Assembly (NCBI GenBank): GCA_030390025.1
Contig: CM059432.1
Location: forward strand, 65,846,001 to 65,910,000
Length of the DNA: 64,000 nt
Reading direction: 5' to 3'
Origin: Squalus acanthias
Taxonomy: Eukaryota
Part shown: one piece after another, positions 262 through 39,631 of the stretch
How positions within the stretch are numbered: position 1 is the stretch's first letter
Layout of the letters: the number at the start of each line of letters is the position of its first letter
The notes under the pieces: generated by a model
Seen by the model: only the letters and a program-made list of their open reading frames with translations
Database searches by the model: none
Told to the model about the DNA's origin: nothing
Program-made: the position numbers and the translations under genes

Positions 262-634
262 TGTGAAGGAATATGCCATATACAGAAAAATACACTATCC
301 TATGAAATAATTCTGATTAATACATGACAAACTAGGCTTGAAAATCTAGAAAACCTAACAATCAGAAGCTGTAAACACCATACAGGCTTTTGAGATAAGA
401 TAAGTTGTTGACACTGAAACAATAGCTTCGTTGAAACAGAGGGTTAGAGCTTCTAGAAAGTCTGCAGCTTGGAAAAAAGACAATACCATATCTAGTTAAA
501 GGTGTCTTAAACCAACACTTTGAAATTAATCACATAAATTAAAGAAACATATGCCTTCATAAATATGACATCAATAGTTGCAACAGCCATCACATTGTTT
601 TTGTGTTGAACTTGGAACACCTAGTAGACACAAA

Positions 635-1384
635 GGGCTGGATTTTGTCTTGGGGTCGTGTAATCCGCATTTCGTGTTTTCCCCCCGACTCCAGATTAAT
701 GTGGATGCCTGATGCAATTTTCACTTAATTGGGCAATTGCGTTGGAGCATGTGGGAACCCATGAACTAATTAGTGTTTTCAGTCTGAAAGTCGCCTCTGA
801 TGATGTCATCATTGCTGACTGCCTAGTCTCAGAGACTGTTGGTGAGAGAGGACCTGTCTGGCTTACTTTTGTGGACCTGGTTGGGGGGGGAAAGGAGAGA
901 GAGAGAGAGAGAGAGAGAATGTTTTTTGCATCCAGGTCCTCTCACAGCAAAGGCCAGGCAGTCTCTGAAGACATTCAATGCAGCAGCATCAGAGGCGACA
1001 TTCACACCTAATACTACTACTAACTAACTTCATCACATCTCCGTTGTAATAGTGGACCTGCAGCCGATAGTCTGCTATCCACTTGTGCTCCCGCCAGGTT
1101 TCACTGGACTGTTTCACACCAGGCGTGCTTCACGTCAGAAGAGGGTTAAACTAGCTACAGCGTTTCAAAATGGCATTACAGAGCCAATTTAGAGCTTGTT
1201 AAGGGCTTTAATGGCCTTTCCCGCCTCTTGAAGGTGGGATGGAGTTGGGAACCCCGCGACTGATTATGTCAAAATTGCGTGGAGGCGGGATCGAGTCGGG
1301 ATGGGGTCGGAAACCCCGACCCCGCAAATTTAACCCCCCGCACGCCTCCAAACCCGACTCCATGGGTCATTCAAAATCCAGCCC
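635..1384. mobile_element. Harbinger/PIF MITE nested in LTR A
   Basis: 13-bp perfect TIR GGGCTGGATTTTG/CAAAATCCAGCCC. 3-bp TSD AAA (632-634, 1385-1387). Confidence 0.9.
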
Positions 1385-2254
1385 AAAGTCTGCTTACAAC
1401 CAGCTAAGGTGACTTAAGAATTGAATAGAAGACCTTCGTGAGAATGACATCACATAGATACATCTGTTACAACCGTTTTTTATGATGAACTTGAAACACC
1501 TAAAGGAGAGACACGAGTTTGAAAGCTACAAGCTGAACTAACTGTAAAAATAGAAGGGGTCAACAGAAAAATGACTAGAGATAATTAGCTTACATCAGCA
1601 GAAAACTTCAAAGGATATACCACTGAGAAAGAGTATAAATATAGAACTTTCAAATAGGAAGACAGAATTCGCTGGAAGGGGCAAAGCGATTCTCAGCTTC
1701 AGAGGCAATCTCAGTAAGCCTACAACTCTTTGAGTCTCGGGTAACAAAGGTATTTGATTTAGATGGATATCCTGGAATAAGACTAAGTAAGAAATGTAAA
1801 AATGTACCGAAGTTAAGATTTGAGAATAAGGATCTCTGATGATAAGAATTGTAAGCTTTTTGTTTTTAGAATTGTTAAAGTTGCGATTGAATCACCAACT
1901 GTAAATTACATGTTGGTTCTTTAATAAATCTTTATATTTTTGGAATTATCTCAAATAGTACTTCTGTATCAAATTTGCAAACTCAATCTCTGTACACTCT
2001 GTGGTGAGGAGTTGCAGAATTCTGGGGGAGTTTTCCGGACCCTCATAATATCCGGAAGGTTACAGTCTAGCTAAACTTATTAAAAGTGTTATCTGGAGGA
2101 CGGTATCATCTTCAGGCTGTTCCTTTCCTTTAGGGAGAGATAGTCTGGACCTTTAGACCCAATTAAGCGTCTTTAGGATCCGGCTACCTCTAACTTTAGT
2201 TGAAGGTGAACGTCTGGGGAATACGCCTGATCCGGGGTAGCCTGAAAAGGGCGA

Positions 2255-3353
2255 TGTAAGCGGTTTTGATCCTAGCCCAATTGCTAGACGGATGGTTCGA
2301 ATCACCCCTGCCTTACGAAAGTTCTATACCCGGGAATTATTATTCAGAGTGTAAATGAAATAAGTCACAGACAGGAATGCTTCGGTGAAAAATTGTACTT
2401 ATATTTATTTGGTCTAACATACACTGGCTAAAACATGCACTACTAAATGAAATCACTGTCTCTGTGGAGAATAAAAATCCAGGTTACAAACAACATACAT
2501 ACAGTACCGAACTGGGGACTATGACAAGCAGTAATTCCCTTGTTGCTATGGTGGACTCTAATTCCACCCCTACCAACAAATTACCCAGTCGCATAAGCCC
2601 CTTCGCCTGGCTGAACCAAACAAAGCTCTCACCCCGGAATAGCCCAAAAGCTTCACTTCTGAGAAAAACTCTGAGCCCTCTGGTTACCGGCTTGGGACAC
2701 TCGAGACCATGCTTACCCCCACACGCAGTCGGTTTCGATAGCTCCGCTCGGCGGCTCCGCTGGTACTTCTTGTTAGGTCGATCTTGTTGGAGCGAGAGCG
2801 AGAGAGATAGAGAATGGTGGGAAAGGGTCTATCTTTATAGGAGTCTCGCTACCCCTATCTTTCCCGCCAATCTTTAAAATCCTTTTGTTTCTAAGCACTC
2901 TGGTGCTTAATCAGTGATGGGTCATCCTCAGACCCATGATTGGACTAATGGCCCTAAGTCTGGGACATCTCTCGGTCTTTGTGTTGGGGAAAACTGGCTC
3001 CTCTCCGGCTGGCTAGGCCAGTGGGTTCATTGTTCTGCTTCTCTTCTGAGATGGAGGTGAGAAGTGCTTTTGCATATTAGAGTGGCTTTCTAATAGGTTC
3101 AAGTTCAACTGGTCAATGGCCCCCTTCCCTTTTTCCAGGACTGTCGGGCGAACCTATACATTCTGGATGACTGACAGTTCTTTTGTCACATCCAACTGCC
3201 ATGCGTTCTCTGGAGTTTTAACAAACCAATTTTTCACATATCTGCACAGGGTGATCCCATCACAGGGAAAATACCCTCAGAAAAATCCCATAAAGTCCAC
3301 AAAATATACTCGACTGAGTCCATTCTTCAAACAGAGACTTTGCGATCTCTTCA
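2255..3353 (-). mobile_element. Solo LTR, family B (1.1 kb), nested near the 3' end of LTR A
   Basis: TG...CA termini. TSD GCGA/GCTA (1 mismatch). Absent at the homologous site of LTR A copy 2. Minus-strand TATAAA ~2835 and AATAAA ~2405. Confidence 0.8.
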
Positions 3354-3378
3354 GCTAGGACTAGTAATAATCCTTTCA

Positions 3379-3726
3379 CTACAAGATGCACTGCAGCAAC
3401 TCGCCAAGGCTTCTTCGGCAGAACCTCCCAAACCCGTGACCTCTAACACCTAGAAGGACAAGGGCAGCAGGCGCATGGGAACACCACCACCTCCAACTTC
3501 CCCTTCAAGTCACATAGCATCCTGACTTGGAAGTATATCGCCGTTCCTTCATCGTCGCTGGGTCAAAATCCTGGATCTCCCTACCTAACAGCACTGTGGG
3601 AGTACCTTTACCACATGGACTGCAGCAGTTCAAGAAGGCAGCTCACCACCACCTTCTCAAAGGCAATTAGGGATGAGCAATAAATGCTGGCCTTGCCAGC
3701 AATGCCCACATCTATGAACGAATAAA
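3379..3726 (+). mobile_element. CR1-group LINE family A, 3' end
   Basis: Continues 1-261. Matches the 3' ends at ~49045-49400 and ~53560-53880. Confidence 0.85.
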
Positions 3727-5382
3727 GATGTGCTTAGAAGGTGTCGCTGGCTCCTGAACTGGAAAAGTCATTAAACTGTTTCTGGCATTGAATTGGTTGG
3801 CAGTTGGCATCATCTGTCCTGGTCATTTCCTTCCTCTCCCTTTAAGCGGCTTTGCTTGGAGTTTGCGTCACTCTCTTCTAAATGGGATTTCCCTCCTCTA
3901 CCTGATCTCCAGCACTTTACATTCAAGAAGCTTGTGGGGTGGGGGAGGAACTGAATCTCTGCCCTCCAGCTCACCTCCTCAATGTAATTTTTATCAAAAG
4001 AATTTGCTTGGGCACAGCAAAAACAATGATTCCTGGCCCTTTAAATTGATGCAGGCCTTTAAATCTTACAACAGCTTGCTGTTTTCAGCTGCCCAATGGG
4101 TAAGTTCCCAATCAAAGATGTTTCTGGTGCCTGATCCTCACCATAATATTTTAATGAGGTTAACCCTGGAAATTACAGCAGCGTCAGCACTCATGATGTC
4201 GGGCAAGCGCAATACATTCTCAGAAAATCTAGGTTACTGTGCCCAAAACACTGAATGTCCATGTAGAGCATTTGGCATGTATTTCGATAGCTGATTTCCC
4301 GAGAGGCGTCCACATTTAGCACTGACAAGTACAATAAAATTCAGACATGAACTGGGTGCTTGCTTGCTAGGTTATAATACAGAATTGTCTCTTATCTCCC
4401 TACATTTCTTATACATTGTCCAAAAACCGGCTGGCCTCTAAGAGGACAGCAAGTGTATGCTCAAAGCTACATATGCACAAGTTGTCCTGACTATTATCTG
4501 CCTGATCTCTCCAGCACGATCACCGTTGTAACTTTACCAACACGAAGTTCTCCCCTAGCTGCTTATGACGCCGTGATCCAATAACGCTGCTCGGACTGCC
4601 ACAAAGTTGACCCATGATCCGCAATAACAGTACTGAAACCCAGTGACCAGAAAAAGACATTCAGCCAGCAGGAGAGAGAGCCGCAGATCTATGTACACTC
4701 TAGTTACATGCTAGATAGCCTCAAATTTGCTGCTGACCTTACAACTGAGGGAGCCATCTGTTGTTATCACACATATGTGCAGAACAGCATGTGCCGGGCT
4801 GCTAATGAGGTAACTTTGGGGCAGCAAGGAAAGTTAAATCCCATGCTGATCTTTGGCAGCAAATGCTAATGAGGCACACCAGGTGATAAATGCTGATTGT
4901 CCTCATAAAAAGAGAATTCTTGGCATGTAGAACAGAGATCAGGAATTAATACATGGAAAGAGAAAAGTCAGGTCAAACATATTTTTAAATATATTTTTAT
5001 TTGGGTAATTGTTACACTCATCTAGGTGATGGACACCAGTGCTGGCAAGTGAAGTGCTTTTTGATTTGCCTTGGCATCAGTTTCGCAGTGGCGCCAGATG
5101 CAGAGTGAAGTTGCTTCCATGCTGTATCAACTGTATCCTCTGTTTGCTATTTGTCGCAAATTTCTCTACAACTAGTGAATAACAGTGTGGTATAAATCCG
5201 TCATGGGCGATAGCACAAAACGACGACAGCGAATCTATCGCCTGTTTTGCACTTTGCCCTATTGTATTTTCCAATGAGGTCGAGATGCTATTGCCAAGAC
5301 AAATTTCTATCCCACCTTACAACAGAATTATACAGATTTTCAACTGCTGCCTGTCCGTTTCTCACCTGAAAAATGGGCCACT

Positions 5383-7343
5383 AGCAGAGAAAATTCGAGA
5401 AGGCACCTTTAATACCAAGGTCCGCCTGATTCAATTTTCAGACAATCGGGGTTCTCCTTCTTCTTAGGCAGTCCCTCGGAACCGAGGATGACTTGATTCC
5501 ACATTAAAAATGAGTTCGCAGGTGACTGATGAGTCCAATGCGGGACCTACAGTCTCTGTCACAGGTGGGGCAGACAGTGGTTGAAGGGGCGGGTGGGTGG
5601 GGTGCTTGGGTTGACGTGCGCTCCTTGCGCTGCCTGCACTTGGCTTCCGCATGCTCCCGGTGAAGAGACTCGAGGTGTTCGGCGCCTTCCCGGATGCTTC
5701 TCCTCCACTTTGTGCGGTCTTGAGCCAGGGATTCCCAGGTGTCAGTGGGGATGTTACACTTTTTCAAGGAGGCTTTGAGGGTGTCTTTGAAGCGTTTCCT
5801 CTGCCCACCTGGGGCTCTCTTGTCGTGCCGGAGCTCCGAGTAGAGCGCTTGTTTTGGGAGACTCGTATCAGGCATGCGGACAATGTGACGCGTCCATCAG
5901 AGCTGATCGAGCGTGGTAAAAGCTTCGATGCTGGGGATGTTGGCCTGAGCAAGAACACTGACGTTGGTGCGCCTATCCTGCCAATGGATTTGCAGGATCT
6001 TGCGGAGGCAGCGTTGGTGGTACCTCTCCAGTGCTTTGAGGTGCCTGCTGTACATGGTCCATGTCTCTGAGGCATACAGCAGGGCGGGTATCACTGCTGC
6101 TCTGTAGACCATGAGCTTAGTGCCGGGTTTGAGGTCCTGATCTTCAAACACTCTCTTCCTCAGGTGACCAAAGGCTACACTGGCACACTGAAGGCGGTGT
6201 TGGACTTCGTCATCGACGTCTGCCCTTGTGGACAGTAGGCTCCAGAAGTATGGAAAGTGGTCCACGTTGAACTAAAGCCTTGTCGTGGATTTTGATAATC
6301 GGGGGGCAGTACTGTGTGGCGGGGGCAGGTTGGTAGAGGACCTTTGTCTTACGGATGTTTAGTGTAAGGCCCATGCGCTCGTACGCTTCGGTGAAGGTGT
6401 TGACGATGGTTTGGAGTTCGACCTCCGAGTGAGCGCAGACACAAGTGTCATCTGCATACTGTAATTCGATGACAGAGGATGGGACGACCTTGGATCTGGA
6501 CTGGAGGCGACGGAGGTTGAACAGTTTCCCGTTTGTTCTGTAAATTAGCTTCACTCCAGTGGGGAGCTTACTGAGGGTGAGATGGAGCGTTGCAGCAAGG
6601 AAGATCGAGAAGAGCGTTGGTGCGATGACTCAGCCTTGCTTGACCCCGGTTCGTACGTGAATTGGGTCTGTGGTGGATCCGTTGGTCAGGATCACGGCTT
6701 GCATGTCGCCGTGAAGCAGGTGGAGGATGGTGACAAACTTATGAGGGCAGCCGAATTTGAGGAGGACACTCCATAATCCCTCACGGTTGACAGTGTCGAA
6801 GGCCTTTGTGAGATCAAAGAAGGCCATGTACAGTGGTTGGTGCTGTTCCCTGCATTTTTCTTGTAATTGACGTGCGGTGAAGATCATGCAAATCGGGGTT
6901 CTACATGGATCGCAGGACCCCAATTGCAATTTTCATGTACAAATGGCGGGGGCGCGTGTGCCATTAACACTAGGCCTAGTTGGACCAGGCATTGAGTGGC
7001 CTAATCAGCCGTCCTTAAGGGGACCAGTGAAGGCTCGTCAGGAAAAGGGAAGTTTTTTAAAGTTTCATGCTTCTCCTGGCCCCACGAAAATCCTCCTGCC
7101 TGTTATAGACTATACTTGCTCTCCCCAGGATTGGCTCCCCTTCACCCCCAACAGGCCTGAGCTCCTGGCTGGTTCCGTGTCAAAACTGGCGAGTTGTAGT
7201 GAAACATTCGTTTGACATCCGCAGCTCGCTGGCATGAATGCAAATGAAAATGGTTCAGGCCTTTCGTCTGTGGCTTTGGGTGGATGCCGTGGATGCCCTG
7301 CCCATTTCCCACCTGTTTTGGACACAGGTTGAAATTTGCCCCC
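5383..7343. mobile_element. Degenerate Harbinger-type MITE hosting the RTE insertion
   Basis: Right end GAAATTTGCCCCC resembles other Harbinger TIRs here. Left end uncertain. Confidence 0.4.
5456..6890 (-). mobile_element. RTE-clade (BovB-like) LINE, 5'-truncated and frameshifted
   Basis: RT motifs FFDLTKAFDTV, GVKQG, QYADD. C-terminal CPTC...HLRTH zinc finger. (AAG)n tail. 12-bp TSD AATCGGGGTTCT (5444-5455, 6891-6902). Confidence 0.92.
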
Positions 7344-7825
7344 ATTGTGTCTGTTAAGGTATAATACTCCTCTTATTATAAAACAATGTATCACCCGATT
7401 ACTTGAGTAAAACCATGGGCGAGCTACTATAATGGGCCAACTAAAATTTATTTTCAACAATAAAAATTGACTAATTTGTGCACTATTTGCTTTTATAGTA
7501 TAGCTGGCATACATTCTGTGAGTGTGAGAAGCCTGGTTTATATTTACGCTCCCTAATTCATGGGCAGTGAGACCAATTGTAACATCTCTAGTAACATTCC
7601 AGACGAGATCAGTTAACTCAGCACAGATCGGGAGATGCTTTTACATATGTTGGATTTGGGTATTTATTGGCACCAAGTGTTCAATATGCTCAAGAATGTA
7701 GATAGTACAGCACTGTTCTGTAGATGAAACTATATATAGATCCAATAATTTAAAATGGTCATAGAATTGGTGAAATATCTAGATTTACTGTATTGTTGGG
7801 TATCTTCTGCACGATGAAGCGTTAG

Positions 7826-8700
7826 CTTGGCTCAGTGGCAGGATTTTCGCTTATCGAATCAGAAGTGGCTTGAGCTCATATTCTCGGCTGACAGTTCAGT
7901 ACAGCATAGAGGGAGTGCTGTATTGTCAGTGTTGCCATACTTCAAATGAAATGTCTGCCTTTTTAGAAAAAGAAAAAAAAAACTTGCATTTCTATAGCGC
8001 CTTTCATGACCTCAGCACGTCCCAAAGTGCTTTACAGCTAATGAAGTACTTTTTGAAGTGTAGTCACTTTTGTAATGTAGGAAAGGCGGCAGACAATTTG
8101 CGCACAGCAAGCTCCCACAAACAGCACTGTGATAATGGCCAGATAATCTGTTTTAGTGATGTTGATTTAGGGATAAATATTGGCCAGGACACCGGGGATA
8201 ACTCCCCTGCTTGTCTTCGAAATAGTGCCATGGGATCTTTTACGTCCACCTGAGAGAGCAGACGGGGCCTCAGTTTAACATCTCATCCGAAGACAGTACC
8301 TCCGACAGTGCAGCACTCCCTCAGTACTGCACTGGAGTGCGAGCCTAGATTTTTGTGCTCAAGTCTCTGGAGTGGGTCTTGAACCCACAACCTTCTGACT
8401 TATATAAATACAAGTTGTTGTTGGTAGAGGCGAGGTGGATGTAAAAATCTTATGGCACTATTCAAAGTGGGGCAGGGAGTTCTCCTGATGTCTTGGCCAA
8501 TATTTTTCCCTCAATAAACATGAGCAAAACAGATTAACTAGAAATTTACATCAGTTGCAGCTGTGGGAACTTGTTGTTCGCAGCTTGGCTGCTGTATTTG
8601 CCGACATAACGACAGTGGCTGCACTTCCAAATTAAGTCATTAGATATGAGGCACTTAGGAGGCCATTAGAGACATTTTATAAATGCAATTTCATTCTTTC
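7826..8700 (+). mobile_element. Degenerate Deu-SINE (SacSINE1-like) interrupted by a younger antisense copy
   Basis: tRNA-like head TGGCTCAGTGG at ~7828. The body resumes ~8436 and ends ...ATAAATGCAA. Confidence 0.65.
7975..8400 (-). mobile_element. Deu-SINE (SacSINE1-like), near full length
   Basis: Reverse complement has B-box GGTTCAAGACCC, core GAGGGAGTGCTGCACTGTCGGAGG...AAAAGATCCCATGGCACTATT and L2-type tail AAAGGCGCTATAGAAATGCAAG. Confidence 0.85.
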
Positions 8701-8755
8701 TGCACCTCTCCAAAAATTAAGCTATACAGCAGTGGAACTGAAGTTAAAGACTGCC

Positions 8756-8865
8756 GGGCCAGGGTTTTCCGTTCTGCACTTGACAGGCCACGATTTTTTT
8801 GTCCATTAAAATGAATGGACAGGAACATTGTGAGCTAGTAAACTCATAAATGGAAAACTTGGCCC
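8756..8865. mobile_element. ~110-bp hairpin mini-MITE (Harbinger-like ends)
   Basis: GGGCCAGGGTTTTCC ... GGAAAACTTGGCCC with a central inverted repeat TGTCCATT/AATGGACA. Confidence 0.55.
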
Positions 8866-9271
8866 CTGTGCCAGTATGCTGAACTGTTCCATGCAACAAC
8901 TACTAATATGTAGAACAATAATAATTCAAAGATTAATTTTGCATACACAATACAAAATAGTACACATGCCACAGCAATAATTGTCAAGAATCTCAGCAGT
9001 TAGAAAGATAGGGGGGTATATTGGTGCTTACTTTCACTATGTATTCACAATAGATGCAATAATAATATAACCCAGGAATAGCATTCTTTTTTTCAAGGAA
9101 ACATTCTCTTCACATTATATCAGAACACATGTTTTATTTTTTGATTCAAAACCCAGGGCTAGAAATTCTGTTGTGTACTTTATTTAAATTGGTTAATGCA
9201 TTCAGGTGAAATTCCTCATTAACCCATTTTTAAAATAAATGGATTAGTGACTTTGTTAAAATAGAGAATAA

Positions 9272-11970
9272 GGGCTCGATTTTGCCAGGCCCGAGGAGGC
9301 GGGATTGGAGGCGTGTGAGGTGGTAAAATCGCAAAAAATGGCGGGTGGGCCCGATCCCGTCTCCAGCCCGTCTCCGAGCAATTTTCCTAAATGCGAGTTT
9401 TCTGACCCCATTTCTATCCCGCCTCCAAGAGGCGGGATAGGCCCTTAAGGCCCTTAACAACCAGTTAAGTGCCTCTATAACCCCATTTTGAGAGGCCTTT
9501 CTGATTTTACCACTTTTCCCCCATCCTGCATGCCTCCTCTGGAACATGCCAGTGAATCCTGGCGGCCTCACAAGTGGATTGCTTACTAACAGCTGCAGCT
9601 CGACCATTAAAAAGGAGTTTTCAGCAATCATCATTTGCAGGTGGCAGAACTTTGTTGTCTCAGATCTGGGGGAACGTTTAGCAGGCATACCCATTGTTGT
9701 GGAAGTTTGGAGCCTGACACCCATCTCCAGTGTGACTTCCTGGGAAACCCCTCTCGCCACCTTGACTGAGCGCTTCCTCAACTGAGGCATATACCAGAAG
9801 CATGGGAACCATTTATTTCCTTTCCTCCTGGACATCAGATTCGGACGAAGACCAGCCGTGGCAGCAGCAGAACCATGAACAACAGCACCACCAACAGCAG
9901 CAGCAACAACAGGAGCTCCAAGCTGCTGCTTACCCACCTGAAGCTGCACAGGCCAGAACGCACCAGCGCGCGACCACATTGCTGCCCGGGATGCAAGGGA
10001 CACACTCATCTTGGCCAGATTTGCTTAGCCTGCACAATCAAACAATTTTGCCTCACACCTTCTTATCAGACCATTGACAATGGCCAAGAACCTGCGGATT
10101 CCTATCACTCTGACCACCATACTGACAATTGCAAGTCACCCTAAGCCCTCAATGTGGAAGTCCCATTAGAGAAATGACACATGCCACAACTGCAACAGTT
10201 TGCCATCAGAATTTTTTATGACAATAAGCAACTGATGGCTTTTCAAAGTTAAACACAACATTACACCCAAGTGACTACGGTAGCCAGCCTTACCATGGAG
10301 GTAGCCAGCCTTACCATGGAGGTAGCCATCCTTTCCAAGGAGGTTGCCATCCTTTCCGTGGTGATGCGTTCATGCGCCAACGCCTCCACAAAGGCTCTGC
10401 ACATGCTAACGATGGACTCCTCCATTCGCTCCACACTTGCAGCGACCCTGGAGACAAAACCTGCCAGAGACTCCTGCACCTGTTCCTGGAGTTCCAGCAC
10501 CGCTCTCCTTCTGGATGGACCCGGAGGCACAGGGTCGACATGCAGCGGAGCCGAGCTGGGAGAGTCCTGTGCCCTCCGATGAGGACTCTCCACTGCTGTC
10601 CCTGTCTCCACCATCTGCTGATGCTCACTTGTGAGCTGTGATACACCAGGTGACAACTCTACTCTATGTCCCAAAGGTCCCACCGAGGTGTGAGTGTCTG
10701 CACTGGTGCAAGGTGCACTTAATTCTGCTGACGGAGCGCCCTCAGAGGTTGCAGCTTCCTCTGAGGAGTCTGGAAGCTCAGGCTCTTCCTCCTGGACAGT
10801 GGGGACGGGAGCTCTCGATGGTCCTGTGGGGGAGTAAAGGAAAGAGTTAGAGATGTGAGGTAAAGGTTGCATGCACATTGAATTGTGCAGATGATCATAA
10901 GCCAATCTGTTAGAGCATCAGAATCATTATCAGTCACTCATGCAATGTCAATGAGAGAGATGCCAAACTATTCTGTCACCAGCTTGCTGTGATGCGCCCA
11001 CGTGTCCGTCCCCCACTTGGGAATCCTCCTCGATCCCGTCAATTTCCAGGGCCGCCTCCTCCGAGGTGGTGAGCTGGGCTACTGAGGGTGGCCCTCCTCC
11101 TGTCCTCGCTCTTTCCCTCTTATTGTGGGCTCTCTTTTCCTGCAATGAGGGACACAAGTGGAGTTTGAGTGAGAATGAAGGAGTGAGTGTAGAGAATCCA
11201 TAGCATAGATGCTTAGAAGGAGACAAAGAGCTCTGCCTGTGTGTTGTAAGTTGTTGTCATTGCGTCACAGTGATAGGGAGTGTGAGGGCTGCATGGTCGA
11301 ATAGTTAAGTGAATGTGACCATAGAGAGAGAGGGAATGGGTAAGGGTGCAGGGATGTCAGTGTCAAGTGGGATGTGGAGGAAGAGGTTGGCAAAGCAGAG
11401 TGCTGGTGAGGAGAGGCGATGGGGATGAGATTGAGGGTGATGAGAAAGTCATGCTCACTTTTCCTGTGCAGAGAAGGTCTCTTTCTGCACTGCAGCCAGG
11501 TTCTGCGGCACATAGAGATGGCATTGACCTCCTGGGCCACTTGCAGCCACACAGCTTTAGTCTGTTGTGGTGGTTTTTTTCTCCCTGAGGAAGGGAAGAG
11601 CACCTCCTTATTAAATCTTGCTCCCTGCATCAGAGCTTGGAGGGAGGGCTCATCAAAGCAAGGTGCACACTTTTGCTTGCTGGTGGACATGGTCGGTAAA
11701 TGAAGTCCTTCATACAATGTACAAAGCGTTTCCAGTCTCCAGAAGAAGCAAGGCTGCTTGCAGGCCTTAAATCCAGCAGCACTGATGACGTCATCGGAGG
11801 TGACTTTCAGGATGGAAAGACTAATTGGGCCAGGGGTTCCCACACACTGGAAATCAAGTGCCCAATTAGGGGAAAATCGCACTTTTTTCCCACTTCACAT
11901 CGGAGTCGGGGTCCTGACACGAAAACCACCTGACACACCCCAGCCCGACCCCAATGGCAAACTCGAGACC
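9272..11970. mobile_element. Non-autonomous Myb-retaining Harbinger
   Basis: TIR GGGCTCGATTTTGCCA / TGGCAAACTCGAGACC. TSD TAA. Three-exon Myb gene on minus strand. Transposase reduced to a remnant at 9802-10028. Confidence 0.9.
10261..11690 (-). pseudogene. Harbinger Myb/SANT-like DNA-binding protein gene, 3 exons (11690-11459, 11139-10980, 10823-10261), frameshift at end of exon 1
   Basis: Motif APCFDEPSLQAL...W..VAQEVN...RTWLQCRK. Exon 2 EKRAHNKRERARTGGG. GT-AG sites. Exon 1 is 232 nt (not 3n). C-terminal 21-bp heptad repeats (ERMATSL/VRLATSM). Confidence 0.8.
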
Positions 11971-12089
11971 TAAGAATTTAATCGAAGCACATTAACCAAT
12001 TTCTTAAAAATGGTGCACCAAGGAATTTCTACCCTAAGTCTATTATCATAATTTTTTTTAAAGAAAATCTTTTGTCACAATTGGGTCAC

Positions 12090-15760: not shown

Positions 15761-17252
15761 TTCCTGCATTGTCTAATTTATTTTCAAATATATTAACTGG
15801 CTCACACAGGAATGCAAGTTAATAAATGCTCCTTTTATTTTTCCCATAGAAACACATGCCTCACATTCTGTTAATATATTTGGTTTGGCATGACATCAGT
15901 TCTTTTAGTTATGAGTACTCTGGCCTACAACTCAGTGTCATGTTGTGAACTGGCTTGTAGATAGTCAGCTAGCAGCATTTTCTGACTGTCACTTGACAGG
16001 CCAGGCAGCTGCCGAACATTTCCATGCTAAGCACATGATCCATTCCCTTTCTATAGTTACCTGAGTCTATTTGAATAAAGTTTGGCAAGTTGTCTTCATG
16101 GCAGGGATTGAATTAAAATGGCATGTGATCTGGAGCCGTGACAACACATTGGCACCAGTGATAATGTGCTGACTCAAGCTGGCCACTGGCCTGCCTGATT
16201 CTGCCAGTCCAGATGCATTGAGCCAGATAGATCACATCCAGCCTTGCAGGAAACATAATGCTACCATTGTACTGAGATCAATGCTGCAATCATAGTTTAG
16301 CCCTCAGAATACACATAGATGAAGTGCTAGAGCTGCTATAAATGTACTGAATGCTCTCAGTTGGGCAATTCCACATAGAACTACCATAATGTTTTGCATT
16401 TAATCCACAATATTGTACACAGTGAACTTGAAATCAGGTGCATGTTATATCTGAAAATTGATATTAAAAATTAACTTCAAAGTGATTTTTTATGTGATGT
16501 GCATTATTTAATGTTGGAAGATGGGCTTCAAATCCAGGTACACATATTATGTGAAATGTTTTACAGAACGCTTTACAGCCAATGAAGTATTTTTTTTTGA
16601 AGTGTAGTCACTGTGGGCTGTAGGAAGCGTGGCACCCAATATGCGCACAGCAAGCTCCCACAAACATCACTGTGATAATGACCAAATAATGTGTTTTAGT
16701 GATGTTGATTGAGGGCTAAATATTGGCCAGGACACCAGGGATAACTCCCCTGCTCCTCTTCAAAATAGTGCCATGGGATCTTTTATGTCCATCTGAGAGA
16801 GCAGACAGGGCAGGGCCTCGGTTTAACGTATCATCTGAAAGACAGCACCTTGTAAGGTTTCCAAAATTTACAGATCCCCAAAACCTAAGGAAAAAGGACT
16901 TTGGAACTACCCCAGAGTGATAAAAATGCATTTGGGCCTAACCTAAGGAATTTAAGACCAAAAACCAAGTTTTGGCATTTTTTAAAACATGTCTGGGCCT
17001 GTAAAGGGAGAAAAGGCTGTGAAGGAAGGTGGGTTCGACCTCTGTAAAAGCAGTTCTGTTTATTGCAGTTAATTGCACTGTCTGGGGAACCGGGATGACC
17101 CTACTCAAGCCCCAGCAGGCATTAACATTTTGACAATAGACCCTGGGAGAAGACAGTCCCACCCAAAATAACAGGCCCCATCAAACCAATTACAGGTCCC
17201 ATCAAAACCATGCATAATACAAATCACTCAGACCAATTTCTATAGAAAGATT

Positions 17253-18095
17253 GGGCTGGATTTTCATTGACCCGTGGAGTCGGGTTTGGAGGCGTGTGGG
17301 GGGTTAAAGTTGCAGATTCGGGGGTCCCGACCCCATCCCACCCCCAACCCGCCTCCATGCCAGTTTCGCTGGCGGCGGGTACCCGACCTGTGCTGGGACC
17401 CGCCTCACCGAGGCGGGAAGGGATTAGTGACAATTAACTGCCTGTTAACAGGTAGTTAACAGGCAGTTTTTTGCCTAATCCCTATTTTAATGGCTGAAAT
17501 GTGGGCTTCCCGACAGGTGCCAACCATGTCAAGTTATCGGGGCGGACCGTGGGTCTGCAGGGGTTGGAGGGGTCGATATGTCCGGTGGGCAGGTGAGTGA
17601 TGGGTGCATGTGTGCAGAGGTAAGTGTGTAAGGTAAGTGCAAAGTGTGGGAAAAAGTTTTACTTACCTTAACTTCCTCCTGCAGGTGTCAGCCCTTCAGT
17701 TCTCGGGAGTCAGAAATCTCACCGGCACAGAAAGCAGAAAGGCCGTGGTGTTGTCAAAAGTTTCAGCCTCTGTTTTCTGTGCTGGAATTATTTCTAACTC
17801 AGCCTGAGAGGAAGGACTCAAGTTAGAAGACAAATTGTCAGTGTTTGACAGCTTCACAGAGCTGTCAAACGCTGATATTTCATCTGTCAAAAGCTCTTGA
17901 CAGATGAAATGTCAATCTGTGACGTCACCTGTTGCCGGGTGGCCCTTAATTGTCCTGCTGAGCTCACTGGGCGGGCTCAACAAGGTCAATCAAGGGAAAA
18001 TACAGTGGGTTGGCCACATCTCGATGGAGAGGGGTCTACAACCTAAAAATTGGGATTCCCGACTCCATCACGTCCCCAGTATCAAAATCCAGCCC
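17253..18095. mobile_element. Harbinger MITE with splice-site cluster and hairpins
   Basis: TIR GGGCTGGATTTT/AAAATCCAGCCC. TSD ATT. End homologous to 635-1384, interior homologous to 43335-45775. Confidence 0.9.
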
Positions 18096-18668
18096 ATTGA
18101 GTCCAGCCTAGAAAACCAAACACAAAACCAATCAACTGTAATCAACCAAGGAGATTGACAGGACGCAAGCCATCCCAAAAACCAGTTAACACGCTAGTAA
18201 AGTCATTACTGTTAACGAGGCCTCCAAAAATCTTACAATTTGATTTTGGTTTTGATAAGGAAGCTTCAATTAGTATAATTGAAAAGGCTGTTTTCTCAAG
18301 AAGCCAGTTCTCCCGCAAAACAGTTCAAGTTCAACAGAAGCCAGTTCTGCAGTTTCGAGTTCAATTGAAAGCCTGTTTTCAGCAGAATCCAATGCTGGAG
18401 TTACAGATTTCAGGAGAAGCAAGTTGGGCAGTTAAAGAAGACAGTTCAGTAAGAAGGGAGTTCTCCAGTTCTCCAGCACAACAGTTAAAGTTCGGCAAGA
18501 AGGCAATTCCACAGCTCTGAAGAGGACAGTTCAACAAAGAAGGCCAACAGCTCCAGAAGCAGGCCGACACGCAAGAAGAAACCAGAGCAACAGTTCCAGT
18601 GACCATCAGACACCTCGTGGCAACAAGGGCCTTACGAAACCTTTTACTCAAAAGACTCTAAACCCTAA

Positions 18669-19564
18669 GGGGTAAAAATTCAGTTGGTTGCGCCTCCCGT
18701 TAGCGCCTTAAGAGGGCGCTAATGGGGCGCAAAGCCGCTAACGCCCGGGCGCAGCGATGTTTGCGCCGCTCGGGAACTTAACTAGAGATTGTGCGGCGGC
18801 GCTAAAACTTACCGCTGCGACCACCTGCGCGCGCAGATTATGACGTCATTCCATGGTGCAACGCCCTTGTGGCGCCCCGGAGCGGAAATTGAGTGGCGCC
18901 CCCTGCCTTACCGCCTGGCGCATCCAACGACCAGAAGACTGGAACGCTATCAATCGCTGTGGGGCTGGGGGGGGGGGCGCTATTTAAAGGGGGCCTCTTC
19001 CTGTCTTTTATTGTTGGTGGCATTTTTGAACTACGCATTCTGAGAGAGAGAGGGAGAGACTTCTGGAGAGATTCAACGTTGTGTGAAGGAGTTTTGGGTA
19101 CTGAGCAGCACTTTGCAGGTTCATTTTGATTTGCCATTCCTTGTATCGATTTAGCAGAGACTGTGGGAGCTGCACTCTGAGCTCTTTGCCTGGTACTCTC
19201 CATTGTTCTTTCCAGCACATTTGATGTGCAAGTCTCTCCAGGCCGAGATTCAAGGCTGCAATGAACAGGATGTGGATGGAAAGCAAGATTAACCATGCCC
19301 TTTAAGAACTGGCCCGTGCCATTGTGTGTGTGTTCCATTGCTGACTGACATTACATGAGCTTCGCCAGCGCTCTGAGTTAGCGCCTCACTCCTTGGCCTT
19401 TGCGCCTTAAGACAGGTGTGCAGCGCCTGCTTTAGCGCTCCACTCACCTCCCGGGGCGGTAAAAGAGAAGTTTCCAGTCAGTGCCGATAATTAGCGCCAG
19501 GCGCTAATATTTGCGTCCAGACGATATTTGCGCCCCAAATGGGGCGCGACCTAATTTCTACCCC
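18669..19564. mobile_element. Internal-deletion derivative of the autonomous Harbinger family at 38060-42296
   Basis: TIR GGGGTAAAAATT/AATTTCTACCCC. TSD TAA. Left arm matches 38060-~38510, right arm matches ~41935-42296. Confidence 0.92.
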
Positions 19565-20096
19565 TAAGTCTCAACTGTCAAGGATTCGTTCGGTGAGCAT
19601 TATCCCTGGTTCTCCAGAGCCCAACCTAGCTAGAGAAGTGGGATTGGGAGGGGTGAAGTATTCTTTTAATGTTATTTCCATCGCTTGTACCGAAGTGTTC
19701 CCCACCTTTAGAGTGTTAAGAGTGTTTGTGTTGTGTTTTACTTTCTTAAATAAAGATCAAAGTTCTTGCATCAAACTCAGTTGTCTGCTGCACCTTTTTA
19801 TCACAACCCCCAAATAAGTCCAAGGTCTAGAACCAAGGGAGTGGGAGCGATTCGAACCGCTCAGAAGTCAGAGGTGAAGCTAACACAAACCACCACCCTG
19901 ACAGTGCAGGGCTCACTCAGTACTGCACTGGAGTGTCAGCCTAGATTTTTGTGCTCAAAGTCTCTGGAGTGGGACTTGAACCCACAATCTCCTGACTCAG
20001 AGGCGCGGGTGCTACCCACTGAGCCACAGCTGACACGAAGCAATTTACAATCATAAAAAAAGTTATGCATCTGGAATATTTCACTTTATACAATAT

Positions 20097-29134: not shown

Positions 29135-29346
29135 TTGGTCTGAAGCTACAGAGAAAGACGGGTAAGTACAAGACTTATAATTAATGCTTGTGTGTAGTAT
29201 AGCAGTTGGTGTGCTGTATCCTGCTTGTGAAGATGTGGTCAGCACAATACAGAAAGCATTGTTGCAAAAATGAACTTCACCATTCTTTCCAACAGAAATA
29301 TGTTTTATATTTGTCCAGAGCATCAGTCAAAAGTGTCAGTTTCTAA

Positions 29347-29851: not shown

Positions 29852-30850
29852 TGTGTGTTTTATTTATTAATGTCTAATTCTGTTCATTAATCTAATCATA
29901 ATACTCTACCTTAACTTTTGTATTCATCTACTGAAGGCCTTATTATGTAATGTCTGGCTTCAGGCAGTGAAAGAACTTGGCTCACTATATCCGCCACAGA
30001 GTCAAACAGCTTATTGTGCACTTATTTCAACACACAGCTGCAGCAATGATGCTGTATTTACTTTTAAGGTAGAGTTCAGGACAACTTGATGATGCTGTGT
30101 GCCTACAATAATGATACAAACCACCCAGTTATCTGTGTGTGAATTCAGCTAATACACGTCAAGCAGTAAGAATATCTTTATTTCAGATTTACTAGCATAG
30201 TAGTGATTTGCTCTTGGAATATTAAACAGAATTTTATAGATATTTAGTTGGACACAAAGGGTGGCGCTGTGCTGGAAGATTCAGAGTTGGAAAAACACTT
30301 TCCTGTTATAAACAAAAGAGGCAATGAACCCACAGAAATAGAACTGTGATAATTACTTGTGATGGTCAGTAATGGGTTAAGAGGATTTTATTCACTAGGT
30401 AAACAATACCCATGTCCTTTTATTTGTTTATCTTCTGTTGACAGTGGAAAATGAAATCAGTTCTGGTGGTGACAACAGTCTGTTAACAAAGCTATTGTCT
30501 GGATTTTGTCATTGAAGAGAAACCCTTACTTTTAAAGGGAACAGCTGCCACTGCAAAAACAAGTAGGATTATGTACCTCAGGCATAATTTGTACGTAGTC
30601 CAAATATAATTGTAATGCGTATTTATGCGCATGGAACATTCTGGCATAAAAAGTGTTCACTCCAGAACAACAGCACTGCCGATGGCTGCCTTCCAAATAG
30701 CTATCAATAACAGCTAGCATCATAAACAAGGTGGCAGAACTACTAATGAAAGCAAATCTGTTATTTATGGCTCTGCAACTCTTGTTAAAATTACCAAGCA
30801 AAGTTATATATAGCATTCCTTCAATAAAATATTAATACTAAGAACTTAAT

Positions 30851-32360
30851 GGCCCGGAATTTGCGGTTGTAATGATGGTGAAACTGTCAGCACACGATGT
30901 CATTACTGTGTAAAACTGACAGCAACTTCTGGCGTCCGCACAGGCGCAGTTAAACGCGGAAATGCAGAAGTTGCTGTAAGTGATACCCTGCTCCTCCACA
31001 GGGTGTGCTGTTGCAGTCTTCGCAGATGCAATCAACACAGAATCAGTGAATTGATGTGAGTTTTTACACACTATTCTCACTGTAAAAAACAATGGCCCTG
31101 AAATTCGCCTCTCCGGCTTGCCACGGGGGTAAGGATCGCGCGCGCACTTACCTACCACGCCTGCCGTTGACCTCTGGGCCCACGGGAACTTCAGCTCCTG
31201 GGCCTGCTCCAAGTGCCGGCGCGCAGTGCTTGCGTGTCCCAGGGGCGTAGTTAGTGCGATGCGTGCCCTGGGATCACGTGGGCCATGGAGAGCCAATGGC
31301 AGCAGACCATCTTTCATTCATAGATTTGACAGGAAGACCTGTCAAATCTATGAATTGAAATCGGCCCCAAAAGAACAGCTAAACTTAAAATATATTTTTT
31401 TTAAACCATCACATTTACAAAATAAATTAACTACTTTAAACAAAAATGTAAGTTTTTGAAAAAATTAAAATACTTTTTAAGAGTGCTAAAAATAAACTTA
31501 CCTTTCTTTAAAGTATCGAAAAAAGATAAACCTGTTGAAATTTTTTTTAAATTATAATTAATTAACCACTTACCTTGTTGAAAACGGGTCCTGCGCCTCC
31601 TTTTTAAAAGCGCAGGTTCTTCAATACTTACCCTCCCGTAGAAACCTGAAAAAAACCCTAAGTTTGCGGCGTGCGCGCAGCCTCTATCGTGCACGCGGTT
31701 CACCTATGAACCGCCCCCTTCACCAGACCGGAAGTTCCGGTTTCCCGCGCATGCGCAGTGCATGCAGGAAACCGGCACTTCAGGACGCCTTACGGGTGAG
31801 TACACAGTGCGTACTCACCCGGCAAGGGCCGAATTTTTGGCCCAATGAAAATGTTAAGCCTTGTTGAATGAGGTGTAACTGAGTTTTTAATGGCGTACTA
31901 AGTGATGATTACTGCTGAACAACTACGCTGGCCCTGAAAAACTATTTTTTATAAGTGTGGAGTCTCATTCCCTCAGAAGAACAATTCAAAATTTCATGAT
32001 TTTTAAAATAATAAAAATTATTATTTTTTTAATGTTTGGTTATGATATTTCAGTTTCTACCTTAATCCCATGTGTATGTCCCAATCTTTATTTTGCTCTC
32101 TGTACAATGATTAAAATGTGAATTATAATCCCTGCTTTTTACTTCCTGCTTTGCTGTCTGTGCGAATTCTTCAATTTGATTGGCTGATCAGCCTGCTTGC
32201 TACCTGCACTGTTGCTGGATGCCACAGAAGGCACCAAATTCAAAGTCACATTGGAATAGAGGAAATCCACGCTCAAGAGCATGCTAAATCTTTGTGGGCA
32301 GCTTTTTTCGAGGTCAGCGGTGAGCGCCGTCCCTTCGCCGCTGACCGCAAAATCCGGGCC
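30851..32360. mobile_element. Harbinger MITE with a nested MITE
   Basis: 17-bp TIR GGCCCGGAATTTGCGGT / ACCGCAAAATCCGGGCC (1 mismatch). TSD AAT. Confidence 0.88.
31094..31843. mobile_element. Nested Harbinger MITE with several hairpins
   Basis: GGCCCTGAAATTCG / CGAATTTTTGGCCC. TSD AAT (31091-31093, 31844-31846). Confidence 0.85.
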
Positions 32361-32979
32361 AATAATGTTAAGATTTGGGTATGTCACACATACATTTTAA
32401 AGTTGGAGTCCAAATTATCTTGTGAATGGTTTGACAATTGCAAATCATTTATCCTTAGTTCACATTAACCATTGTCATGAAATGATTAGTGAAAAATCAT
32501 GAGGAATCTTTACTGAAGATAAGAATTCTGATAAGTCTAAATGTTAGATTCACATGATTCAAAATTTGGGTTATTTAAATCTAAATTCAGTTCTTAATTG
32601 ATGTTTGATAATTGAAGCTAGCAGCTGATAGACATATAACAGGGGTTAAAATGAGCCTGAAGTAGATTGTCATGATATTCAGACTATTCAATCAATGATT
32701 TACACATCCTATGACTCCCCCTTAAAGAAATAACTGGATACATTTACCATGTGCCTTTCCCAAGAAGGGATATTTGGATTAACCACTTAATAATATAAAG
32801 GGCTTTATAGGCTACTAAAACCCAGAATAGGTTCTCTAATCTATTTTTATTATCTGGTTTATCCTTTCTTACCTTTTTAAAGGGAAATGTACCATTGGCT
32901 ATTCTCCAGACCCCTGGCATACATTTCTTATCTAAGAGGATTGAAAAATTATGGTCAAATCCTTTGCTACCTTCTACTA

Positions 32980-33070
32980 CAAAAACAGAAAATGCTGGAA
33001 ACACTCAGCTGGTCAGGCAGCATTTGTGGAGAGAGAAACAGAGTTAATGTTTCAAGTCGATGACCCTTCT
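32980..33070 (-). mobile_element. Penelope terminal fragment with decayed hammerhead
   Basis: Homologous to 45911-46000. CTGATGA core lost. Confidence 0.75.
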
Positions 33071-33419
33071 CTCTGACTTCCATCAACAGTCTAGAGTGCG
33101 TGCTATCAGGGCTCAGTGACTTATCCATTTTGAATGCTGCCCTGCCCTGCTTGCATCAACTGTAAGACTTCCATGTGCAATTGCTGGCCAGTCGGTGGGC
33201 AAATGGCCCAACTCTGCACCAGCGGTTGCTTTTTTGTGGCCCCCGCAGATGGCCTGTTAACGCGTACGTTGACAAGCCACAAGTTCTGGATTTTGCGCAT
33301 GAGAGTATGCTGTCATACACACTGCAATTTCAGGGCCATTATGTCTGTAACAAAAATGTAATCTTCTATCTGTGCTGAATATTTTTAACTTACATTTTCT
33401 AGTGCTAGAATTAGCATGT

Positions 33420-36400
33420 AAGGGGTTGAAGGAGAATCACACAGGGCATTTCTCAAAGGAGAACACACCAATATAGGAGAGAGCAGGCTCCAAGGTTTTC
33501 GGATACTGCTCTGGAGGTCTTGGTGGAGGAAGTCAAAGGGAGGAGAGATGTCCTGTATCCGCAGGGGTTAGGAGGACCTCCAGACACATGCTCAGAAGGC
33601 AGTGGGAGCAGATAGCTGTGGAGATCAATGCGAGGAGTCAAGATCCGAGGACCTGGATGCAGTGCCACAAGAAGTTCAATAACCTCACACGAGTGGTCAA
33701 GGTAAGTGAATGCATCTTCAAATACCAGATCCTACCAACTGCACCAGTAGACTCAGCCACCGCTCAAATCACCACACCCCATCACTCACCCACCAACAAT
33801 CTCTATCAATCAGGCCTCATACCTAACATTCATATGCTTCACCTCACCCTCACACACTTAGCATTGCTACAAGCCTCACACCCACATCTCACAGCTTGCA
33901 CACACTGCCAGCTATTCAACCATGACAGTCACATCAGCCAAACAGATTGTACCACACTCACTGACACACTTCCCTCTCACTTGCAGGACAAGGTGGTGCA
34001 CAACCATAGGCAGCAAGAGCTAACCGGAGGAGGACAAGCACGCCTGCATGTCCTAACCCACATGGAGGAGATGATGCTGGCCATTATTGGAATGGCCATT
34101 GCTGAGGCTGTGGCCAGCGGCAGGGCTGTAACCTTTGAAGATGATGGTGTCCTCATACCTAATTCTCCTTCTCACATCCCACTTCTCCCTCATCCCACAC
34201 TCTCTTCTGATTTACAAGCTGCAGATAGTACTGCACCTCTTACTTTCCCCCACTCCCCGCACCACAACCTTACCCTTGTGCCTTTTTCCTTTCAGATACC
34301 CAAGAGGTGCAACCTGGCCAGGCAGTGGAGGAAAACCAAGAAGAGAGTGATGATGAAGGCGCAGTACCGTCACTTGATTTCACACTTGCTGCCATCAGCT
34401 CAGTTACTAATACTGCGCATATCTTAGAGAATAGGTTACAGGCGGGATCTGAACATGGTGAGACACTGGGCATGAGTGGTCAGGAAGCAAGGATAGTGCA
34501 GGTGCCAGCTCGCTGGAGGGCGAGGTCGCAGACGGTTTTGGCTGCAGAGGACGCAGATGAGGACTTCAATGGGGTAGCCTACAGAAGTACGCTAATGGGT
34601 ATGCACAGAAAAATGCTTGGTGCATTGGCAGGCCTGCCAGAAAGCCTGCATTCAATGACAAGGAGCATGGAGGAGTCCAGCACCAACTTGGCACAGGGCT
34701 TTGCGCAGATCTTGGAGCCCATCCTTTGAAGTATGGAAGTGGTGGCCAACTCTGTTCATGCACTTGTGGACCCAACCATGATGCAGTGTCTGATGGACGA
34801 TGTCACAGCTTCCATTGCAGCACAAGCAGCAACCATCCAACATCTGAGTGCTACAGTGGAAGCTTAGACTTCTGTCATGCAAGGTCAGCTTGCTGCCATG
34901 CAAGCTCAGACTCCTGCGATCATAGCTGCAGTTACCAGTGTTGAAAGGAGCTTGCAGGGTGTCACAGCAGTCCAGCAATCTGTCCTCCAACAGTTTACTA
35001 GTATTATTGAGGTGCCACTGGGGGAGTGGCAGTGGCTCCACAGAGCACGAACCTGCTGTCCTCTCTCAGGAAGATAGCATTCGTCCTCCCACCCCTGCCA
35101 CTCCGCCAGTGCCTGTGCTGTTGCTAGTCAGCTGGCCAGCCCACACTGTTGCCGCCCATGCCGAGATGGTGCAGCCTGCAGCTGGGCCATCTAGGCCCAG
35201 AGCTGCTTGAGGTCGCCTTCCAAGGCCATCTGCAGTCTCCTCCATTGAAAGTCAGCAGCCTTCCACCAGCCTTGCTGCAGCAACTGGGGTAGCACTGCAT
35301 AGGAGCACTAGGACAGGCAAAGGCACCTAGAAGACAGCCACTAAGGGAATGCACAAGGGTGATTGGTTTAAGTTTACATGCAATATGGCATGATTTCATT
35401 TATAAATTTGGTTTGGAATGTTTATTTTGTGGTGGCTTTTATTTTTGCATTGTGGCCAAGCGAACCCTGTGATGCTCAATGACAGAGGAAAGTAAGGTGT
35501 GGGACTGTTAGTGAATGGGGAATTGGGGTTGCAGTTACTGGTATCATACTCGGATGAGTTCTTCATGGACATCCCGGCTGAAAGGGGCTGTCTAGGTTGC
35601 CTCCTCTCTTCCTCTTCCTCCTCCTCCTCCTCATGCTCCTGCTCCTCAGCTGCTTACCGTATAGCTGGTGGCAAGGGCTGCTGCATAACCTCATGATGGC
35701 GAGGTTGTGTAGCATGCAACAGGTCACCACGAATCTTGACACCCGCTCTGCTGAGTACAGTAGGGCTCCTCTAGAGCAGTCCATGGCTTTCATTGTATGC
35801 ATGCTGCGCCATGTGCATGGGTTGCACACCGGAGTCATGAGCCATGTTGTCAGCAGAAAGCCCTTGTCGCCCAGTAGCCATCCTTTGGATTGCCATGGTG
35901 GCTGAAATGCAGCTGGCACAGCAGACTGCCACAGAATGAAGGCATCATGCCTCCTGTCAGGCATTGACCTGCATGATGTGCTGTCTATGTTCACACACCA
36001 GCTGGATGTTGAAGGAGTGGCATAGGGCAGAGTTGACATGCGGCTCCCGCAAAGCAATGTGCGTGCAGTCAATGGCACCCTGCACCATGGGGAAGCCTGC
36101 AATCCTTGTGAAGCCACATGCTCGCTCCGCCTGCTGCTCTCTGGCATGAGAGACTGAAATGTAGTCAACTTTCTTTGAATAGAGAGCCTCAGTGACCTCC
36201 CTTACGCAACAGTAGATGGCAAACTGCGAGATGTTGCAAATATCTCCAGCTCAAGCCTGGAAGGAGCCAGATGCATAAATGTTTGTAGCCACGGTCACCT
36301 TCACAGCCACTGGCAATGCGGTCCTTGCCCTGCTCTGAGCTTGCAGTTGTGGCAGCAGTAGTTGGCAGATTTCAGTGAGGACATCCTTACTGAAGTGGAG

Positions 36401-37057
36401 ACATCTCACACATTGTTCCTCACTGAGGTTCAGGTAGGAACACCCTGGGCGGATATGGCCTCCTGCTTGAGACCTCTTCTCCCCCTCCTCCTCCTCCCTC
36501 TTCCAGCAGCTTGTCCTGCTCTGCATGGCCTCTGTTCATTCTCAAGAATGCCTACTTGTGCACCCATGTCCGGCGGCAAGTGATTTGTACAGAAGCCTTG
36601 AAATCAGCAAAAAGTCATGTGCTGTGGACTTTTGAAACTTGAAACAACTATAGAAAGCACCAAACACTTGCAGAATCGCATCAATAGCCAGAAAGATCAA
36701 CCAGCAACTAACCTGTAAGTAGTTGATGATCCCTTTAAATAGAGCTGGTTGGAGGGGGCGGGGGGGAGTTCTTCCTTTGGCTGAATGCGTGTTCAGCTGT
36801 AGGAGCTTAAGAGAGAGTGTTTGCTGGAGCGTTGAGCTCCAAAATAGCACCGCTGGTGTCAAATCAACGTTGCACACTGATTGACGTCATGATCTGCCTG
36901 CTCTGTAACCTTCCGGTGGACGTTAGCTGCACACGCGCTAATGCCCTTACCAATATAGCGTCCGGCGCGATTCACCCCACAAGTGTGCAAATGCCATTTT
37001 GGTATCCAAACGGCACCCGTAGTGTCCAAACAATGGGCGCTACCGATCCAATTTCGT
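33420..37057 (-). mobile_element. Degenerate Harbinger, inverted relative to 22989-26310: Myb pseudogene on + (exon 1 ends 33701; exons 2 and 3 start 33987 and 34296), transposase pseudogene on minus (~36567-35540)
   Basis: RTWMQCHKKFNNLTRVVK|GTAAGT. DKVVHNHRQQELTGGG. WLLGDKGF. Collinear with 22989-26310. Confidence 0.88.
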
Positions 37058-38368
37058 GCTGTATGACTCTTAACTCTTATCTGAAATGGCCTAACAAATC
37101 ATTCAGTTGTATCAAACCACTAAAAAGAATAACTGCAGCAGTCCAAGAAGAAGGCCCTCCACCTGAAGGGATAATTACTAGTCCTAGCCCTTTTCGGGCT
37201 ACCCCGGATCAGGCGTATTCCCCAGACATTCACCTTCAACTAAAGTTAGAGATAGCCGAATCCTATAAGACACTTAATTGGGTCTAAAGGTCCAGACTAT
37301 CTCTCCCTAAAGGAAAGGAATGACCTGAAGATGTTACCGTCCTCCAGATAGCACTTTTAATAAGTTTAACTAGACTGTAACCTTCCGGATATTATGAGGG
37401 TCCGGAAAACTCCCCCAGAATTCTGAAACTCCTCACCAAAGAGTGTACAGGGATTGAGTTCACGAGTTTGATACAGAAGTACTATGTGAGACAATTCTAA
37501 AAATATATAGATTTATTAAAGAACCGACATGTAGTTAACAGTTGGTGATTCAGTCGCAACATTAACAGTTCAAAATACAAATAGCTTACAATTCTTATTC
37601 TCAGAGATCCTTATTCTCAAATCTTAACTTCGTTACATTTTTACATTTCTACTTATTCTTAATCCAGGATATCCACCAAAATCAAATAACTTTGATTACC
37701 CGAGACTCAAAGAGTTGTAGGCTTTCAGAGCCTGTCTCTGAAGCTGAGAAACGCTTGCCCCTTCCAGCGAATTCTGTCTTCCTATTTGAAAGTTCTATAT
37801 TTTAACCCTTTTTGCAGTGGTATATCCTTTGAAGTTTTCTGCCGATGTAAGCTAATTATCTCCAGTTATATTTCTGTTGACTTCTTTCTATTCTTACTGT
37901 CAGTTCAGCTGTTAGCTTGCTGACTTGTGTCTCTACCTTTAGGTGTTCAGAACTTATCATAAAAAACGGTTATAACAGCTGTATCTATTTGATGCCATTC
38001 TTATGAAGGTCTTCTATTCAATTCTTAAATCACCTCAGCTGGTTGTAAGCAGACTTCATGGGGGAAAATTCAGTTGGTTGCGCCTCCCGTTAGCGCCTTA
38101 AGAGGGCGCTAATGGGGCGCAAAGCAGCTAGCGCCCGGGCGCAGCGATGTTTGCGCCGCTCGCGAACTTAACTAGACATTTTGCGGCGGCGCTAAACTTT
38201 ATCGCCGCGATCTCCTGCGCGCGCAGATTGTGACGTCATATGAGAGTGCAACGCCCTTGTGGCGCCCCGGAGCAGAATTTCAGTGGCGCCCCCATCCTTA
38301 CCGCCTGGCGCATCCAACGACCGGAAGAGTGGAACGCTAACAATCGCTGTGGGGCTGGGGGGGGGCGC

Positions 38369-39600: not shown

Positions 39601-39631
<31 letters not shown>

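Follow-up and report, generated by a model that had tools for sequence, protein, structure and literature searches.

Two unrelated Harbinger elements 2 bp apart in two copies of one shark LTR: a likely case of target-site preference

In the passages cited here, the target preference of PIF/Harbinger transposons spans 9 bp in plants and 15 bp in vertebrates (PMC2836001), and the target consensus of Harbinger3_DR of zebrafish is given as AAACACCWGGTCTTT (PMC3016246). The Dada DNA transposons, as described in the part cited, comprise families that are strictly specific for small-RNA genes (PMC3706591). The cited part of PMC4482050 assigns a CWG TSD to the NuwaI group and calls PHIS elements absent from sharks, and the section concerned of PMC9179366 reports no PHIS elements in elephant shark and recommends other cartilaginous fish for checking. 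Among titles and abstract starts, with most subscription papers outside the scope, no literature was found on Harbinger hot spots in shark LTRs.

The window, which denotes the whole stretch of 64,000 nucleotides of Squalus acanthias DNA that was analysed, contains a 750-bp MITE (635–1384) and a 4,237-bp Harbinger (38060–42296) that interrupt homologous positions of one LTR, called LTR A below. In the aligned left flanks of the LTR, the TSDs of the two elements are offset by 2 nt. The preliminary description had reported that two copies of one LTR were hit by different Harbingers at sites no more than 2 bp apart, and the coordinates, TIRs and TSDs behind that report were confirmed. It is quite likely that the two unrelated elements lie 2 bp apart because this position carries an extended target preferred by Harbingers, which is offered there in two overlapping registers.

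The locus resembles Harbinger3_DR, as characterised in the cited passages, in the two-gene PIF/Harbinger organisation, the 3-bp TSD and the extended 15-bp target, whose flanks are matched at 5–9 of 12 bases by all 14 paired insertions of the window. It differs from that system, as far as those passages go, in its A/T-rich TSDs (AAA, ATG, TAA, ATT, AAT), which are not CWG, in a preference that is looser and common to several families, and in an elasmobranch-type host. A MITE with an autonomous partner, an A/T-rich 3-bp TSD and a flank preference are shared with PIF/mPing and the Tourist MITEs of maize and rice in the account cited (PMC2836001), whereas the plant preference is put there at 9 bp and the bias of the shark Harbingers reaches at least +6 on each side. 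As in the cited account of Dada (PMC3706591), one position of a multicopy sequence was hit repeatedly, but the Harbingers of the window lie in a LINE, a MITE, other Harbingers, another LTR and unannotated DNA, with no strict target. A strictly target-specific transposon of the Dada type was ruled out, as relatives of both elements occur in other hosts, and membership of the NuwaI group by its TSD was rejected, with CWG in 0 of the 14 paired insertions.

The two elements and their LTR hosts

The two elements and the copies of LTR A are located in the window as follows.

635–1384, no strand assigned: 750-bp non-autonomous Harbinger (MITE), 12-bp perfect TIR GGGCTGGATTTT, non-coding
632–634, + strand: left TSD AAA of the MITE, right copy at 1385–1387, flanks AGACAC / GTCTGC
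38060–42296, no strand assigned: 4,237-bp Harbinger with both genes open, TSD CAT/CAT on the + strand (ATG in LTR orientation), + strand flanks AGACTT / GTCTCC
38552–39730, + strand: DDE transposase frame, 392 codons stop to stop, DDE_Tnp_4 E 2e-40
40042–41939, − strand: Myb/SANT gene with three exons (41939–41703, 41310–41148, 40988–40042), GT-AG sites, 448 codons open, predicted splicing
262–3378, + strand: solo LTR A copy 1, TG...CA ends, 4-bp TSD CTAC, LTR part about 1.26 kb, interrupted by two nested insertions
37164–42855, − strand: solo LTR A copy 2, TG...CA ends, 4-bp TSD GGTG, about 1.45 kb of LTR
63840–64000, + strand: start of LTR A copy 3, which ends at the window edge before the target site
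1634–1928, + strand: TATA-like box (1634) and AATAAA (1923) of LTR A
2255–3353, − strand: second LTR nested in LTR A copy 1, TSD GCGA/GCTA

The PIF/Harbinger characters found here are the 3-bp TSDs (AAA/AAA and CAT/CAT), the TIRs, a DDE transposase gene, a Myb/SANT gene, whose product gives a Myb_DNA-bind_5 match at E 3e-9, and the extended target preference. Both genes belong to the large element, and the MITE is tied to the superfamily by 69–79% DNA similarity to parts of a Myb-encoding element at 9272–11970. The TIRs of the large Harbinger differ from each other by one A. Those of both elements are G-rich and 12–16 bp long, which is shorter than the 25–50 bp described as usual for Harbinger TIRs in the section cited from PMC9179366. 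The transposase has 264 matches at E 1e-50 or better; among the 120 listed, those closest to it come from sharks and rays and carry the name 'putative nuclease HARBI1', the best at 66%. Intron 1 of the Myb gene contains a 54-bp tandem repeat (41287–41610), in which adjacent units are 98–100% identical. The large element, intact and with open frames for both genes, allows target choice to be tested with a vertebrate Harbinger that is natural and not reconstructed.

From their TG...CA ends, 4-bp TSDs, TATA-like box and poly(A) signal, both complete copies of LTR A are classified as solo LTRs. The TATA-like box is followed by AATAAA in both, and no internal retroelement region adjoins either of them. 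The TATA-like box follows about 250 bp downstream of the insertion site, which probably falls within U3. A passenger could hardly be carried by solo LTRs, which argues against the earlier proposal that the Harbingers hitchhike on the retroelement. The host of copy 1 is a CR1-type LINE, whose halves (1–261 and 3379–3712) match 48785–49378. The labels CR1, RTE, L2 and HE1-type SINE are presumed from the appearance of the sequences, and one LINE frame has an RVT_1 match.

LTR A is present three times in 64 kb, and copies 2 (42738–42855) and 3 are 99.2% identical over their first 118 nt, with different flanks. The second LTR (2255–3353) is solo and inverted relative to copy 1, some 20 bp before its 3' end. 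It is missing from copy 2 and also from contigs of three runs (48, 70 and 136 contigs), which lead directly into the end of LTR A. About 120 bp of copy 2 (42370–42491), located between short direct repeats, are missing from copy 1 (at 574). Related organisms have loose contig ends at 574 and 585, which points to the longer form of LTR A as the usual one.

The right arms of copies 1 and 2 are 91.5% identical over 861 nt. The two copies differ inside the target site by CA (copy 1) versus TG (copy 2), and both TSDs of each element carry the form of their own LTR copy, which indicates that each insertion postdates this change. A CA-versus-TG pattern between copies is typical of CpG decay. In the contigs of one related organism, CG and TG were found at the same positions of the LTR site. 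The two elements themselves show no DNA similarity, the best match being 17 nt (E 0.39). Independence of the two insertions, as claimed in the preliminary description, is supported by the different families, the different TSDs and the base specific to each LTR copy in each TSD pair. The near-identical position in homologous repeats might instead point to one ancestral insertion that was replaced by another element, either through excision and local re-entry or through conversion between copies. Such a replacement is largely refuted and has next to no probability, as it would have to join elements without DNA similarity and to leave TSDs that are perfect yet different and offset. It is also opposed by the separate 4-bp TSDs and hosts of the LTR copies, by a CA/TG difference older than each insertion, and by the fact that solo LTRs are not copied onward.

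The target-site motif

The target site is the palindrome AGAC-N5-GTCT. Copy 1 reads AGACAC[AAA]GTCTGC and copy 2, on the opposite strand, reads AGACTT[CAT]GTCTCC, and both events fit AGAC-NN-[3-bp TSD]-GTCT, one per strand. The offset is exactly 2 nt because the palindrome offers this arrangement twice, 2 nt apart.

The general flank preference of the Harbingers was determined from 35 non-focal ends in the window, which were chosen by hand on TIR and element evidence; many are old and some are unpaired. Matches that were SINE-internal, element-internal, duplicate or isolated and unsupported were dropped from the hand list, and ends with TIR changes that miss the rule were added. An uncurated TIR rule gave 51 ends, with about 19 chance matches expected per window. 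Counted outward past the TSD, position +1 is G in 18 of the 35 ends, and T occupies +2 in 20, +4 in 26 (p 7e-9) and +6 in 25 (p 5e-8). The word GTCT was found only at offsets +1 and +3, in 3 ends each, and in 0 at the ten other offsets (p 1.2e-7). The pattern recurs in the uncurated list of 51 ends, of which 2 have GTCT at +1, 3 have it at +3, and 0 have it at nine other offsets.

The flank matrix derived from the hand list generalises in a leave-one-out calculation, with about 1.6 bits per half-site and a best weight of 0.75–1. With the focal ends left out of the matrix, the used sites rank 5th of 1,232 LTR positions in copy 1 and 18th of 1,438 in copy 2, that is, in the top 0.4% and 1.3%, where the LTR end used for the ranking was 4 nt short and few scored positions are affected. 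Their matrix shares are 4.6% and 1.2%, compared with less than 0.1% each under uniform choice. The partner register also scores high in both copies (4.9 and 3.6), and every odd register is negative. The focal half-site GTCTGC has a near-zero score under the symmetric matrix. The simpler pattern A-N-N-Y[TSD]R-N-N-T fits both registers in both copies, and 21–22 other such sites with a central A/T are present per LTR. The window has 0 empty AGAC-N5-GTCT sites, which is uninformative since fewer than 1 is expected (estimated by hand).

The comparison with the flanks of Harbinger3_DR gives a similar picture for copy 1, whose site agrees at 9 of 12 bases; of the 1,215 other LTR sites, none exceeds this and 2 equal it. 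For the site in copy 2, the agreement is 7 of 12 bases, a score that 11 of 1,427 sites surpass and 45 share. Each of the 12 non-focal paired insertions agrees at 5–9 of 12 bases, where the background probability of at least 5 is 0.24.

The preliminary description had suggested an insertion hotspot or targeted integration into an LTR enhancer. The status of the position as a preferred site is supported in that it is, on the matrix ranking, one of the best matches to the Harbinger motif in the LTR, and the targeting of an LTR or enhancer is unsupported. In the mechanism we propose, a complex of transposase and Myb protein would read about 6 bp to the left and right of the TSD, which is the behaviour reported for Harbinger3_DR of zebrafish. 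Because both sides of the TSD would be read over about 6 bp, an LTR of 1.3–1.45 kb would contain only some tens of effective targets, and the repeated use of one such target would be unremarkable in a region with about 43% Harbinger. The AGAC-N5-GTCT site may therefore be a modest family-wide hot spot through its sequence, not through being part of an LTR or an enhancer. The focal pair is a real observation that likely has an ordinary cause, namely, sequence preference at a palindrome with a double register. As such, it is a small, clean example of something already known, in that divergent families in a shark-type genome share a target motif like that of the zebrafish Harbinger, and it implies that apparent Harbinger hot spots in repeats need a motif-based null.

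Odds of coincidence and the share of LTR hosts

Two insertions would come to lie within 2 nt of each other with a probability of 0.4% under a uniform target and of 0.55% with matrices made from random positions (200 trials, maximum 1.0%). This probability is 1.4–3.2% with the flank matrix and 4.4–5.1% when a TSD term is added. The motif raises the odds of coincidence 4–12 times, yet only to about 1.5–5%, and the focal pair is still somewhat lucky given the motif. A pure coincidence under near-uniform insertion, found because many windows were read, could be argued from the fact that there are two events only, that Harbingers cover about 43% of the window (with rough boundaries), and that the focal pair was picked after the fact. 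The insertion of Harbingers here is non-uniform, as the flank bias indicates, and the matrix shares of the used sites are far above those of uniform choice, which leaves such a coincidence very improbable.

The 1.5–5% that remains after the motif is also an argument for integration directed to LTRs, where open germline chromatin or a bound host factor at U3 would add a hot spot beyond the motif. The position of the site upstream of the TATA-like box is compatible with this, and so is the proportion of insertions with perfect TSDs that lie in LTRs, which is 4 of 7 compared with an LTR share of 14.5% (p 0.011, a post hoc value that includes the focal pair). In addition, close relatives of both focal elements occur in a further LTR-like repeat.

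16851–19885, + strand: another LTR-like repeat with relatives of both focal elements, namely, a MITE at 17253–18095 (TSD ATT) and an element at 18669–19564

The element at 18669–19564 has the TSD TAA and the flanks AAACCC / GTCTCA, and is 84–86% similar to the large Harbinger. The LTR-like repeat itself sits in a SINE.

When all paired insertions are considered, 4 of 14 lie in LTRs (p 0.13). Without the focal pair, the number is 2 of 12, where 1.7 are expected, and for perfect TSDs it is 2 of 5 (p about 0.16 by hand), with both insertions in the one LTR-like repeat described above. They occupy positions of that different repeat that are unrelated to the focal site. The same flank motif accompanies Harbingers in a LINE, a MITE and another Harbinger, and one short motif is fitted exactly by two families in both registers. 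Among the 24 loose contig ends listed, no filled copy was found, which is weak evidence, while empty joints occur. Overall, directed integration is unlikely. LTR- or enhancer-directed targeting is not supported, and the targeted integration into an LTR enhancer that was proposed earlier does not agree with the choice of hosts. The accompanying idea that Harbingers disable the retroelement is likewise unsupported, as the non-focal insertions show no LTR excess and other hosts are used too. A broader version, in which several families of young shark Harbingers would be directed to LTR U3 more than the motif predicts and the double-register palindrome would act as a genome-wide trap that gathers DNA transposons in one retroelement promoter, is quite improbable. 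If it were true that insertions exceed the motif genome-wide, this would be a vertebrate DNA transposon steered to retroelement promoters.

Empty sites in public contigs and related elements

From 4 of the 24 listed runs, contigs were aligned to 230–2290; contig depth, which does not equal copy number, was not used. Empty copies of the site are common: among the 15 of 62 joints listed, the empty site was bridged by at least 1, at least 2, at least 11 and at least 11 contigs in the four runs. Judging from these alignments, the LTR A family is common to two other organisms. No other element was found at the site among the 24 of 2,300 loose contig ends listed. At 1389, 11 contigs among the listed loose ends stop with a tail that starts with GTTT (agreement 0.46, dependent on the alignment), which may reflect the same half-site bias but is too weak a signal to count. 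Further LTR copies suggested by an exact-match scan with short patterns, at 7 metagenome and 13 viral loci, were rejected as chance matches, since 0 of the 20 align beyond about the seed and the longest is 28 nt.

The middle of the MITE (851–1057), which is partly skipped repeat, has little or no cover in the runs of two related organisms, and the LTR and the ends of the MITE are covered. The subfamily to which this MITE belongs may be lineage-specific.

The transposase of the large Harbinger has more than 100 close relatives among the shark and ray proteins that bear the name 'putative nuclease HARBI1', and many of the annotated elasmobranch 'HARBI1' genes are likely transposases. Other Harbinger-related structures in the window include a small hairpin-like MITE (9156–12034) that is split by the 2.7-kb Myb-encoding Harbinger (9272–11970, TSD TAA). 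A similar nesting is found at 30851–32360, which contains 31094–31843. At 46143–47606, there is a 1.46-kb element with inverted arms of about 340 bp (88%).
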